In this document: one piece after another, positions 14,697-18,428 of the stretch
Layout of the letters: each line of letters begins with the position of its first letter
How positions within the stretch are numbered: the stretch's first letter is position 1
Notes under the pieces: model-generated
What the model was told of the DNA's origin: nothing
The model's database searches: none
What the model saw: only the letters and a program-made list of their open reading frames with translations
Position numbers and translations under genes: made by a program
From: Escherichia coli
GTDB lineage: Bacteria > Pseudomonadota > Gammaproteobacteria > Enterobacterales > Enterobacteriaceae
Direction: 5' to 3' (one strand)
Length of the DNA stretch: 64,000 nt
Assembly: GCF_003334405.1 (NCBI RefSeq)
Contig: NZ_QOWM01000002.1

Positions 14697-16196
14697 ATGA
14701 GCATCTTGTACGAAGAGCGTCTTGATGGCGCTTTACCCGATGTCGACCGCACATCGGTACTGATGGCACTGCGTGAGCATGTCCCTGGACTTGAGATCCT
14801 GCATACCGATGAGGAGATCATTCCTTACGAGTGTGACGGGTTGAGCGCGTATCGCACGCGTCCATTACTGGTTGTTCTGCCTAAGCAAATGGAACAGGTG
14901 ACAGCGATTCTGGCTGTCTGCCATTGCCTGCGTGTACCGGTGGTGACCCGTGGTGCAGGCACCGGGCTTTCTGGTGGCGCGCTGCCGCTGGAAAAAGGTG
15001 TGTTGTTGGTGATGGCGCGCTTTAAAGAGATCCTCGACATTAACCCCGTTGGTCGCCGCGCGCGCGTGCAGCCAGGCGTGCGTAACCTGGCGATCTCCCA
15101 GGCCGTTGCACCGCATAATCTCTACTACGCACCGGACCCTTCCTCACAAATCGCCTGTTCCATTGGCGGCAATGTGGCTGAAAATGCCGGCGGCGTCCAC
15201 TGCCTGAAATATGGTCTGACCGTACATAACCTGCTGAAAATTGAAGTGCAAACGCTGGACGGCGAGGCACTGACGCTTGGATCGGACGCGCTGGATTCAC
15301 CTGGTTTTGACCTGCTGGCGCTGTTCACCGGATCGGAAGGTATGCTCGGCGTGACCACCGAAGTGACGGTAAAACTGCTGCCGAAGCCGCCCGTGGCGCG
15401 GGTTCTGTTAGCCAGCTTTGACTCGGTAGAAAAAGCCGGACTTGCGGTTGGTGACATCATCGCCAATGGCATTATCCCCGGCGGGCTGGAGATGATGGAT
15501 AACCTGTCGATCCGCGCGGCGGAAGATTTTATTCATGCCGGTTATCCCGTCGACGCCGAAGCGATTTTGTTATGCGAGCTGGACGGCGTGGAGTCTGACG
15601 TACAGGAAGACTGCGAGCGGGTTAACGACATCTTGTTGAAAGCGGGCGCGACTGACGTCCGTCTGGCACAGGACGAAGCAGAGCGCGTACGTTTCTGGGC
15701 CGGTCGCAAAAATGCGTTCCCGGCGGTAGGACGTATCTCCCCGGATTACTACTGCATGGATGGCACCATCCCGCGTCGCGCCCTGCCTGGCGTACTGGAA
15801 GGCATTGCCCGTTTATCGCAGCAATATGATTTACGTGTTGCCAACGTCTTTCATGCCGGAGATGGCAACATGCACCCGTTAATCCTTTTCGATGCCAACG
15901 AACCCGGTGAATTTGCCCGCGCGGAAGAGCTGGGCGGGAAGATCCTCGAACTCTGCGTTGAAGTTGGCGGCAGCATCAGTGGCGAACATGGCATCGGGCG
16001 AGAAAAAATCAATCAAATGTGCGCCCAGTTCAACAGCGATGAAATCACGACCTTCCATGCGGTCAAGGCGGCGTTTGACCCCGATGGTTTGCTGAACCCT
16101 GGGAAAAACATTCCCACGCTACACCGCTGTGCTGAATTTGGTGCCATGCATGTGCATCACGGTCATTTACCTTTCCCTGAACTGGAGCGTTTCTGA
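14697..16196 (+). CDS. glcD: Glycolate oxidase FAD-binding subunit, 499 aa
   Basis: Full-length, FAD-binding PCMH-type domain; matches K-12 GlcD. Confidence 0.9.
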   Translation: MSILYEERLDGALPDVDRTSVLMALREHVPGLEILHTDEEIIPYECDGLSAYRTRPLLVVLPKQMEQVTAILAVCHCLRVPVVTRGAGTGLSGGALPLEKGVLLVMARFKEILDINPVGRRARVQPGVRNLAISQAVAPHNLYYAPDPSSQIACSIGGNVAENAGGVHCLKYGLTVHNLLKIEVQTLDGEALTLGSDALDSPGFDLLALFTGSEGMLGVTTEVTVKLLPKPPVARVLLASFDSVEKAGLAVGDIIANGIIPGGLEMMDNLSIRAAEDFIHAGYPVDAEAILLCELDGVESDVQEDCERVNDILLKAGATDVRLAQDEAERVRFWAGRKNAFPAVGRISPDYYCMDGTIPRRALPGVLEGIARLSQQYDLRVANVFHAGDGNMHPLILFDANEPGEFARAEELGGKILELCVEVGGSISGEHGIGREKINQMCAQFNSDEITTFHAVKAAFDPDGLLNPGKNIPTLHRCAEFGAMHVHHGHLPFPELERF

Positions 16197-17015
16197 TGCT
16201 ACGCGAGTGTGATTACAGCCAGGCGCTGCTGGAGCAGGTGAATCAGGCGATTAGCGATAAAACGCCGCTGGTGATTCAGGGCAGCAATAGCAAAGCCTTT
16301 TTAGGTCGCCCTGTCACCGGGCAAACGCTGGATGTTCGTTGTCATCGCGGCATTGTTAATTACGACCCGACCGAGCTGGTGATAACCGCGCGTGTCGGAA
16401 CGCCGCTGGTGACAATTGAAGCGGCGCTGGAAAGCGCGGGGCAAATGCTCCCCTGTGAGCCGCCGCATTATGGTGAAGAAGCCACCTGGGGCGGGATGGT
16501 CGCCTGCGGGCTGGCGGGGCCGCGTCGCCCGTGGAGCGGTTCGGTCCGCGATTTTGTCCTCGGCACGCGCATCATTACCGGCGCTGGAAAACATCTGCGT
16601 TTTGGTGGCGAAGTGATGAAAAACGTTGCCGGATACGATCTCTCACGGTTAATGGTCGGAAGCTACGGTTGTCTTGGCGTGCTCACTGAAATCTCAATGA
16701 AAGTGTTACCGCGACCGCGCGCCTCCCTGAGCCTGCGTCGGGAAATCAGCCTGCAAGAAGCCATGAGTGAAATCGCCGAGTGGCAACTCCAGCCATTACC
16801 CATTAGTGGCTTATGTTACTTCGACAATGCGTTGTGGATCCGCCTTGAGGGCGGCGAAGGATCGGTAAAAGCAGCGCGTGAACTGCTGGGTGGCGAAGAG
16901 GTTGCCGGTCAGTTCTGGCAGCAATTGCGTGAACAACAACTGCCGTTCTTCTCGTTACCAGGTACCTTATGGCGCATTTCATTACCCAGTGATGCGCCGA
17001 TGATGGATTCCCTGG
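16196..17015 (+). pseudogene. glcE: Glycolate oxidase subunit GlcE, 3'-truncated (~270 of 350 aa)
   Basis: ATG overlaps glcD stop; GlcE-like sequence stops near 17.0 kb, then frame reads antisense autotransporter DNA. Confidence 0.7.
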
Positions 17016-18360
17016 GCCACAATGTCAGCCCACAGGCCGGAGGCGTTGTGTATCAGATTCAGGTATCCGCCCAGGCTGCCGGCATCATCCCGGACCGTGC
17101 CGGCACGGGAGCCGTCATCATCCTTAACATCAACGGAAGAATGGCCAGCAGCACCATATACCCCCGCGGTCACAGACATACCGGCAACCTCTGTTCTGAG
17201 CAGGTCACCCTCCAGACGGACGAAGCCATAGCTGCCGCTGCTTTCCGGCGTGGCTCCACGGGCAATACCGCCGTTGTTATCGTGACCGAGATGACCGCCC
17301 TGAATGCTGAGACGGACGCTGTTATTTTCACCGCTTACACCGGTCTGATGGCTGCGGGAGCCTGCCAGAATCCGGTCATAGTCCATTGCCTGTGTCAGCA
17401 TGGAGGCATACAGGGGGACTTCTGCACGATAAGCATTTTCACTGCGCAGATACCAGCTCTCATCACTGTCCCGGTTGAGGGAGTAGTTAAAGGCACCGGC
17501 CTGCAGCTTATTCCCCTGGACAAAGGCCCCTTCCTCCGTGGTGGCACCGTTAATGGCTTCCACCACCTGAATACCCTTACCGCTGGTCGCCAGCCCCGAC
17601 GCACTGTTGCCGGCGTTCACCAGGTTCAGGATGGTTTTTCCGGTTGCCCTGCCACCGTCAATGACCAGTCTGTCAGCATTGTTCTGTGCCATATCCGGGC
17701 GTACACGCAGGCTGATGGTGCCATTCTGTCCGTTCAGGTTTTTCACTTTCAGGGTTGCCGGTACGAACTTCCCTGTGCGGGTGGAGGTGAAATGAATCTG
17801 TCCGGCATGGCTGAGGTCATCCACCACCGACTGCACCGTGGCGTTATCGGGAATATTCCAGGTGGCACCAGAGGCGAGAGTGACATTCGTGGGGTCAATG
17901 GCACCGTTCAGCACAGTGCTGCCGGTCAGCTTCAGGGCTGTACCGCGCTGAGCAATGACATCCGTGGTGACGGTACTGTCGTTCAGCGTCAGCGTGCCTT
18001 CATTCAGGTTGACGGCTTTCTGGGTGAGTGTGGTGTTGCTGACAGTGAGTGTGCCACTTCCTGATTTTTCCACGCTGCCGTTACCGGTGAGAGAGCCTCC
18101 CTGCAGGAGTGCATCGCCTTCACGGATGGTCAGGGTATCGTTGTTCACCGTCTTCCCGGAAAGGGTAAGTATGGCGCCGTTATTCAGCGTGGTGGTGCCC
18201 GCCAGTGTGCCGCCCCTGGCGGTGAACAGTCCGCCATTTACCGTGGTATCCGTGGCCGTATCACCGGCGTTCAGCGTGAATGAACTGCCTTTTTCCAGCA
18301 TCAGGGCATCCGCCTGACCGCCTCCGATACTGAATGCCTTTCCGTCGCTCCGGGTAACCC
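17015..18360 (-). pseudogene. Antigen 43-like autotransporter adhesin, internal fragment
   Basis: Gly/Thr/Asn-rich beta-helix repeats ('TLTQKAVNLNEGTLTLNDSTV...'); no signal peptide, no complete beta-barrel. Confidence 0.7.
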
Positions 18361-18428
18361 TTTCCGGTCAGCAGATAACGCGACTGACAGAATTACCCCC
18401 GGCATATAACCTGCAGCGCAGTGCGCAG

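Follow-up and report, generated by a model that had tools for sequence, protein, structure and literature searches.

The 64-kb window, i.e. the whole stretch of 64,000 nucleotides of Escherichia coli DNA analyzed here, very probably (rough probability 0.85) carries the scar of illegitimate, microhomology-mediated deletions in a once much larger pheV island. An earlier note on this DNA had proposed a deletion scar; the mapped breakpoints, the overlaps at the joints, the collinearity with the STEC388 island, the loss of genes within the window and the reproduction of the junctions in other assemblies all support this reading. The scar is a case of ordinary decay, and erosion of pheV islands of this kind has already been described; the present case is a base-resolved addition in which erosion proceeds into core genes.

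Truncation of the glc operon and gene loss relative to K-12

The left side of the scar comprises the following features.

13682..14446, minus strand: glcC, intact glycolate regulator; GntR and FCD domains called in the identical contig L006
14697..16196, plus strand: glcD, intact glycolate oxidase subunit of 499 aa (ORF list), collinear with K-12 glcD
16196..17009, plus strand: glcE', the 5' 814 of 1053 nt (codons 1-271 of 350), 100% identical to K-12, diverging thereafter
17008..17009, no strand: junction 1, TT microhomology common to glcE and agn43; GGnTT matches at four of five positions
17010..30532, no strand: pheV island remnant of 13.5 kb, replacing 15.3 kb present in K-12 and lacking attR

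Alignment showed the glcC region to be collinear with K-12 glcC at 99.98% identity. Homology to K-12 ends at position 17009, corresponding to nt 814 of glcE and agreeing with the earlier estimate that GlcE-like sequence stops near 17.0 kb, and restarts at 30533; both flanks are 99.94-99.98% identical to K-12. The K-12 stretch missing here (L005, 20161-35417) is not matched by any part of the 64-kb window. It contains the 3' end of glcE, glcF, glcG, glcB, glcA, sslE, pppA, gspS2, gspC, gspL' and yghD, and the loss of glcF, glcG, glcB, glcA and the yghJ (sslE)/gsp genes between pheV and glcE, which had been deduced previously, is thus borne out for the window. These 64 kb of the genome define the scope of the result; copies of the missing genes could in principle reside elsewhere.

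A functional GlcE would be expected as a 350-aa product encoded beside glcD and glcF; here, codons 1-271 are left and glcF is absent from the window. Since the three glycolate oxidase subunits are the products of glcD, glcE, and glcF (PMC8909705), the strain is predicted to be unable to oxidise glycolate. It is also predicted to lack SslE and its secretion system. For the lineage, this would mean no use of glycolate, no SslE mucinase and no type II secretion system for SslE.

A chimeric reading frame and an internal fragment of agn43

Beyond junction 1, the frame of glcE continues into agn43 DNA of opposite orientation.

16196..18064, plus strand: chimeric 622-aa ORF, GlcE 1-271 followed by 351 antisense agn43 codons (ORF list)
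17008..18356, minus strand: agn43 (Ag43) fragment from the interior of the gene, spanning nt 1191-2539 of 3120 and encoding aa 398-846 of 1039

The 622-aa ORF at 16196-18064 consists of GlcE and antisense agn43, as had been suggested when the glcE frame was seen to run into antisense autotransporter DNA. FAD_binding_4 is the sole Pfam entry on record (pre-computed) for its product. The agn43 piece (17005/17008-18356) aligns over 1352 nt, at 99.9% identity, with agn43 genes on the minus strand in many E. coli, and the agn43 genes of other pheV islands are 99.9% identical to it and have the same orientation. The same degree of likeness, 99.9% to agn43 of functional length, links it to the flu-yee module of the cryptic prophage CP4-44 and of related islands. 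Compared with an Ag43 of the CP4-44 type, however, only aa 398-846 are kept; the signal peptide and most of the passenger domain are gone and the barrel is incomplete.

The full Ag43 protein contains an ESPR signal peptide (aa 6-52) and an Autotransporter beta-domain (aa 765-1015; Pfam). The fragment begins at aa 398 and therefore lacks ESPR; it ends at aa 846 and keeps about 80 of the roughly 250 beta-domain residues, without a match to PF03797. This domain map agrees with the earlier description of an Ag43-like minus-strand piece having neither a signal peptide nor a full beta-barrel. The only Pfam matches were a single AIDA repeat and AC_1 over its full length, and these show the Ag43 origin of the fragment, not a function. 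The fragment cannot work as an autotransporter. Its residual ORF encodes 439 aa (16982-18301); both this and the 622-aa ORF are presumably functionless, and they should not be listed as proteins in an annotation.

Structure of the two junctions

The second break had been expected at about 18.30-18.37 kb and was placed at 18352-18356 by three-way comparison and alignments. Its partner, which the earlier note did not name, belongs to a type VI secretion (T6SS) ImpA_N/VasL gene, of which it forms the 3' end.

18352..18356, no strand: junction 2, microhomology in which agn43 and the vasL gene have GGGTA in common
18352..18830, plus strand: vasL', tagA/vasL-like 3' remnant with the VasL domain complete and the stop codon retained

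The remnant sequence forms the end of an unbroken 457-codon ORF in IAL7250, in which ImpA_N occupies aa 8-109 and VasL aa 302-443; junction 2 falls at about aa 297 of this ORF. Junction 1 was mapped by comparing the window with both K-12 glcE and QML220601 agn43. Up to each joint both flanks are 99.9-100% identical to known genes, and therefore the junctions are not chance similarities. Three-way comparison and a repeat scan revealed neither filler bases nor an IS end at junction 1, and no extra bases, IS end, inverted repeat or terminal repeat at junction 2. Deletion by microhomology predicts what was found, namely flanks that are collinear in STEC388, short overlaps (TT and GGGTA) and the absence of any mobile-element end. 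IS-mediated loss of modules would leave an IS copy or end at the joint; both joints run from gene to gene with no intervening bases, and since neither of them shows an IS end, an inverted repeat or filler, IS-mediated deletion is rejected.

The exact chimeric ORF occurs on seven contigs, two from NCBI and five from Logan samples. Two of the seven carriers were fetched, the NCBI draft GCA_024592615.1, in which the contig with the chimeric ORF is 382,932 bp long, and the Logan assembly of ERR4578754; each matches the window at 100% identity through the two junctions. An assembly error, which the earlier note had named as an outcome that would overturn its reading, is excluded by this identity between two independent sources. 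It is scarcely credible that the contig was mis-joined through repeated agn43 copies, even though agn43 is multi-copy in many E. coli (median two places per genome) and the source is apparently a draft assembly: besides the seven contigs and the two identical sequences, the overlaps of 2 and 5 bp are too short for a k-mer mis-join, and the contigs run through the 1.35-kb piece, which an identical copy elsewhere would have prevented. Neither junction was found in any of 5,426 complete E. coli genomes, and together with the seven contigs this points to a rare lineage instead of an artefact. No relevant literature was found on the carriers (JANJGO, GCA_024592615, ERR4578754) or on pheV in combination with glcE.

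Intact islands and reconstruction of the probable deletions

Alignment with K-12 and with an intact island, as proposed in the earlier note, mapped the breakpoints in agreement with deletion. In the orientation of the window, STEC388 contains glcD-E-F-G-B-A, sslE, pppA, gspS2, gspC-L, yghD, and the yee module, followed by Ag43 (minus strand), a GTPase gene, a cdiB remnant, ImpA_N/VasL, a hypothetical gene, QatABCD, an integrase, and pheV. The glcE', agn43', and vasL' pieces have the same order and orientation there, and since STEC388 holds all of the pieces, the scar can be explained by collinear deletions.

None of the complete genomes examined represents the immediate ancestor, which we infer from several islands. 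STEC388 agn43 is only 84.6% identical to the window fragment; the agn43 allele of the window is present in the pheV islands of QML220601 and MIN12, where it adjoins yghD/gsp in the same orientation. The islands of IAL7250, NCTC9100, and BS74R-D are 100% identical to the window right of junction 2, with vasL unbroken. As candidate ancestors STEC388 and H22 fall short by other Ag43/Cah alleles, QML220601 and MIN12 by other proximal cargo, and the agn43 allele and the Qat module of the window were not found in one island among complete genomes.

Leftwards from pheV, the ancestor would have carried the integrase, IS remnants, CBASS, QatABCD, the hypothetical gene, T6SS tagA/vasL, and further modules, then the GTPase gene, agn43, the yee module, and attR; beyond attR, the chromosome would have continued with yghD, gsp, pppA, sslE, and glcA-B-G-F-E-D. 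One deletion would have joined glcE nt 814 to agn43 nt 2539 across the TT overlap. Given a full gsp cluster in the ancestor, it would have spanned about 32 kb and taken the 3' end of agn43, the yee module, attR, the beta type II secretion genes, sslE, glcA, glcB, glcG, glcF, and the 3' end of glcE. The other, of at least 14 kb, would have fused agn43 nt 1191, at the GGGTA overlap, to tagA/vasL where the region of the VasL domain begins. The overlaps at the joints and the loss of the yee module and attR had escaped the earlier note.

The deletions may have been two separate steps, but no genome with a single junction was found: each junction was present in 0 of the 5,426 complete genomes, and junction 2 on 0 of 58 metagenome contigs. 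Hence, both junctions might have arisen in one compound event, by template switching or break-induced repair of the MMBIR type with two skips, the 1.35 kb of agn43 being copied in between. The short microhomologies at both junctions (2 and 5 bp), the collinearity of the retained piece and the lack of single-junction complete genomes, or of metagenome contigs with junction 2 alone, are consistent with such an event. We nevertheless consider it unlikely, as in a lineage known from seven contigs missing intermediates are expected from sampling alone, and the vasL-side breakpoint has arisen independently elsewhere without the glcE junction, so that junction 2 needs no coupling to junction 1.

Loss of DNA at this locus is recurrent. 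K-12 has a gspC-gspL' fusion, and IAL7250, NCTC9100, and BS74R-D share a pitB'-yghD deletion; like the deletions in the window, these are losses that closely related strains underwent independently in the pitB-pheV interval, but with other end points and other genes lost. In the IAL7250 group everything from yghT to gspL is gone, the entire glc operon with it, whereas the group retains yghD, attR-side remnants, and the unbroken vasL gene along with a Qat island 100% identical to that of the window.

The remaining pheV island

Right of vasL', the island consists of the following features.

19066..20196, plus strand: hypothetical gene (ORF list), weak PD-Lambda-4_B match
20328..24887, plus strand: complete QatABCD anti-phage system (PADLOC, QatA-QatD, E-values 0 to 6e-97)
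25440..27351, minus strand: CBASS-type pair of an oligonucleotide cyclase and a 2TM (SLATT) effector (PADLOC)
29081..30343, minus strand: P4-type island integrase (ORF list), annotated as tyrosine recombinase/integrase in IAL7250, whose island is 100% identical
30541..30616, minus strand: pheV tRNA-Phe, carries attL (ARAGORN)

PADLOC assigned E-values of 9e-177 to the Cyclase and 2e-82 to the Effector 2TM of the CBASS-type pair. A 9-bp tandem repeat is located inside the hypothetical gene (20048-20108; TRF).

GI-pheV islands are modular, with a P4-type integrase beside pheV and the flu (agn43) and yee modules in distal position (Nhu et al. 2024, PLoS Genet, PMC11537424). In the window, the integrase (29081-30343) likewise lies directly downstream of pheV (30541-30616). 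A distal direct repeat (attR) was not detected: the 23-bp pheV repeat occurs once in the 64 kb with three mismatches allowed. According to the same study, attR is missing from 34% of pheV islands; these are smaller, which was ascribed to ancestral deletions said to fix the island in the chromosome, and IS-mediated loss of whole modules was the favoured mechanism (PMC11537424). The window resembles this attR-less class in its size of 13.5 kb and its missing attR. In contrast to the published islands, its deletion did not stop at the island border but also took core genes (gsp, sslE, glcA-glcE), and its joints are base-level microhomologies without flanking IS copies. As attR has been lost, the remnant is predicted to be unable to excise; the island would be locked in place with little left beyond QatABCD and the CBASS pair.

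Reuse of the vasL breakpoint

The vasL breakpoint is common to three other deletion types in about 386 genomes. Two of these join different positions of cdiB to vasL', e.g., in EC361 and MS20674 (190 genomes together), and the third has an ISEc8-flanked segment of 125 nt at this point, e.g., in P24_WM1_05.20 (196 genomes). All of the products (agn43, two cdiB, ISEc8-flanked) lose DNA on the same side, and the partner has GGNTA in three of three cases with known original sequence. For the 125 nt that precede vasL' in the P24 type, no original context was found, as every covering match belonged to the same junction type.

Such a pattern could also be produced by insertion, either of an agn43 fragment or of a mobile unit from vasL' to Qat with a fixed left end, transposed into glcE/agn43. 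The left end of vasL' adjoins five different left flanks, and the known original partners end in GGNTA, resembling the choice of a target site by a one-ended element. However, the reciprocal halves of glcE or agn43 are absent from the window, the joint contains neither a transposase nor a terminal repeat, and the partners all lie left of vasL, in the right orientation and in the intact order of STEC388 and H22, as deletions predict. Furthermore, in 475 genomes an unbroken ImpA_N-VasL ORF has the vasL' segment as its natural end. We therefore regard insertion as very improbable; the mobile unit is rejected on account of the natural ORF end and the one-sided partners in intact order.

Under the preferred reading of collinear deletions, reuse of the breakpoint means that junction 2 may not be a random microhomology event. 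We tentatively suggest, while thinking it rather less probable than a random deletion end, that the vasL-side breakpoint (18352-18356, GGNTA/ACCC) is a site-specific fragile point. A sequence-specific nick or break, or a replication barrier, would create a fixed DNA end there, and a microhomology search confined to one side would repair it. The window allele GGGTAACC contains GGTNACC, which we take to be a site of the BstEII/Eco91I type; a break at this restriction site is rejected as the general cause, since 38 of 43 sampled unbroken alleles read GGATAACC and lack it. A hairpin was rejected as well: folded as DNA, 18345-18405 gave -7.6 kcal/mol (z = -0.78), which is not significant. If the suggestion is true, pheV islands carry a natural site-directed deletion hot spot, and this reused breakpoint is the one point that could yield something new, a sequence-specific hot spot in E. 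coli islands.

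Layout of the locus and structure of the scar

The E. coli chromosome in the window reads opposite to the K-12 map orientation, with the gene order pitB, yghO, glcC, glcD, glcE, island, pheV, yqgA, speC. Both flanks are 99.94–99.98% identical to K-12 MG1655. Homology to K-12 ends at window position 17009 and restarts at 30533; 13.5 kb of island DNA stands where K-12 has 15.3 kb. Furthermore, an 8.4-kb segment at 4184–12572 is missing from K-12, in which IS5 occupies the corresponding position; it encodes LptF/LptG-like permeases, an aminotransferase, a PP-binding carrier protein, an epimerase/dehydratase-like protein, and an AMP-binding ligase.

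Features of the window around the scar and the island
14697–16196, glcD (ORF list)
16196–18064, plus strand, 622-aa ORF (ORF list)
16982–18301, minus strand, 439-aa ORF (ORF list)
20328–24887, complete QatABCD anti-phage system
25440–27351, CBASS-type cyclase and 2TM (SLATT) effector
30541–30616, minus strand, tRNA-Phe (ARAGORN, sole tRNA found)

A search of 5,426 complete E. coli genomes showed that window 15800–19200 consists of three unrelated pieces, derived from glcE, agn43, and vasL. No two of these pieces lie side by side in any of the 5,426 genomes, and no genome bridged junction 1 (glcE/agn43) or junction 2 (agn43/vasL) when queries of ~310–320 bp centred on each joint were used. Break points were set by base-by-base comparison. 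At junction 1, K-12 identity of glcE extends to 17009 (…GATGATGGATT), where the earlier note had placed the end of glcE-like sequence near 17.0 kb, and agn43 identity begins at 17008; the overlap is TT, and GGnTT agrees at four of five positions. At junction 2, the second break proposed near 18.30–18.37 kb, agn43 identity reaches 18356 (…CTCCGGGTA) and identity to the type VI secretion gene begins at 18352, giving the overlap GGGTA. Neither joint contains added bases, and IS-like repeats were not found near them.

The truncated glcE retains 814 of 1053 nt (codons 1–271 of 350). The agn43 piece matches its counterpart in many strains at 99.9% identity across 1352 nt and corresponds to nt 1191–2539 (aa 398–846) of the 3120-nt gene of QML220601. 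Pfam assigns ESPR (6–52), AIDA repeats (100–457), AC_1 (573–690), and an Autotransporter beta-domain (765–1015) to full-length Ag43, but one AIDA repeat and AC_1/Pertactin and nothing more to the fragment; as had been suspected, a signal peptide and a complete barrel are absent, leaving little of the passenger domain and about one-third of the barrel. The vasL piece (18352–18830) is the terminal part of a gene that is intact in IAL7250 as an unbroken 457-codon ORF with ImpA_N (aa 8–109) and VasL (aa 302–443) domains; junction 2 falls at about aa 297, immediately ahead of the VasL domain. The frame passes from glcE into antisense Ag43 DNA as the earlier note had read it, and the 622-aa ORF thus consists of GlcE 1–271 and then 351 antisense agn43 codons. 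FAD_binding_4 is the only Pfam hit recorded for its product.

An assembly error at the junctions was also considered. The exact 622-aa sequence is present in a public protein collection and is encoded by seven contigs: an NCBI carrier (GCA_024592615.1, contig of 382,932 bp, listed for two samples) and Logan carriers (ERR4578754 and similar contigs, listed for five samples). Identity to the window is 100% across 21.9 kb for the NCBI locus and across 13.9 kb for the Logan locus, both joints included in each case. Overlaps of 2–5 bp are unable to give a k-mer mis-join; an artefact is taken to be excluded in practice.

Origin by deletion

An intact arrangement was seen in STEC388, which in window orientation reads glcD-E-F-G-B-A, sslE, pppA, gspS2, gspC-L, yghD. 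The yee module comes next (DUF4942, DUF957, DUF5983, cbtA, yeeU, onward to an antirestriction gene plus DUF932). Ag43/Cah (minus strand) succeeds it, and after that come a GTPase gene, a DUF4222 gene, a cdiB remnant, IS1, the ImpA_N/VasL gene, the Qat island, and pheV. H22 keeps this gene order on a larger scale. The agn43 allele of the window occurs in unchanged orientation in the pheV islands of QML220601 and MIN12; beyond it, QML220601 shows the yee module and yghD-gsp. Given these arrangements, the three pieces retain ancestral order and orientation, which bears out the earlier reading as a deletion scar.

Two collinear deletions explain the structure. The first, glcE-to-agn43, removed ~32 kb (coordinates of QML220601 plus K-12, or of STEC388), or less if the ancestor already carried the K-12 gsp deletion, and with it attR, the distal island repeat; a second copy of the 23-bp pheV repeat is absent from the window with up to three mismatches allowed. 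The second, agn43-to-vasL, measures ~14 kb by STEC388 coordinates and more by H22. The two joints may have arisen in separate steps or in one template-switching event; no single-junction genome was found in searches of complete genomes and metagenome contigs.

This decay scar belongs to a known kind, is ordinary, and is confined to its lineage. The pheV islands have a modular build in which the integrase gene alone is conserved, flu and yee modules are common to several types, and attR is missing in 34% of them; the islands without attR are smaller, which the authors ascribe to ancestral deletions with a stabilising effect (Nhu et al. 2024, PMC11537424). The window island falls in this attR-less class; unlike that class, however, its deletion extends into core genes and its joints are microhomologies without IS copies. 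Independent DNA loss at the same locus produced the gspC-gspL' fusion of K-12. Furthermore, IAL7250, NCTC9100, and BS74R-D carry a Qat island 100% identical to that of the window together with a deletion fusing truncated pitB to yghD (42965–44948, 6496–8479, and 1244–3227 of loci L003, L008, and L009, respectively), which takes yghT through gspL, the whole glc operon included. The pitB-pheV interval is deletion-prone.

A reused breakpoint in vasL

The unexplained point of this otherwise ordinary scar is its vasL breakpoint, which coincides to the base with that of three other deletion types (~386 complete genomes). One segment on the right, in each case beginning with the same GGNTA, meets five different left flanks, and no further type occurred among 58 metagenome contig loci.

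Left flanks of the vasL segment (example; complete genomes; partner sequence, slash at the break)
Unbroken vasL gene (IAL7250, STEC388, H22); 475; not applicable
cdiB 5' region (EC361); 190 genomes jointly with the MS20674 type; GGATA/TCCGG
cdiB, 307 nt further in (MS20674); within the joint 190; GGTTA/TGTCAC
ISEc8 end plus 125 nt, origin not traced (P24_WM1_05.20); 196
agn43 (window); 0 of 5,426; GGGTA/CCACTG
Breakpoint positions: window 18352–18356; compared loci L004 6002, L013 4002, L012 5002, L001 12001, L011 49243

GGNTA is present in every partner with known original sequence, and each deletion uses the same five bases as microhomology. Were break points random along the 1.37-kb gene, the chance of three more falling on these 5 nt would be very small, ~1e-7. 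All deletions remove the same side; since the intact order places every partner to the left of vasL, the deletions are one-sided and start from a single fixed position. A GGTNACC restriction site was rejected as the cause because most unbroken alleles read GGATAACC, without the site, and a hairpin because the fold z of −0.78 was not significant. A putative site-specific nick or break at this position is possible.

Predicted consequences and island content

The lineage should be unable to grow on glycolate, because glcE is truncated and glcF, glcG, glcB, and glcA are gone. Also missing are sslE, pppA, and the beta gsp cluster; therefore, SslE secretion would be lost. Because attR is missing, the island remnant is presumably not excisable by the integrase. 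It holds chiefly defence genes, namely complete QatABCD and the CBASS cyclase with its 2TM effector; the pheV island after deletion is essentially a small defence island. The Qat genes lie on the same strand as truncated glcE, and the plus strand from 16811 to 20400 yielded no predicted terminator-like site; transcription that starts at the glycolate-induced glcD promoter could conceivably continue towards Qat.

Between the vasL piece and qatA lies an AT-rich hypothetical gene (19066–20196) with 6.8 copies of a 9-bp tandem repeat encoding Ala-Glu-Val (20048–20108), within which the short-read Logan contig stops. Its length differs by strain (1131 nt in the window, 1284–1446 nt elsewhere), and its sole family match, PD-Lambda-4_B, is weak. 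Remnants of IS66-family and IS4-family transposases, none belonging to an intact IS, cluster at 27486–28667, with the CBASS pair on one side and the integrase on the other.
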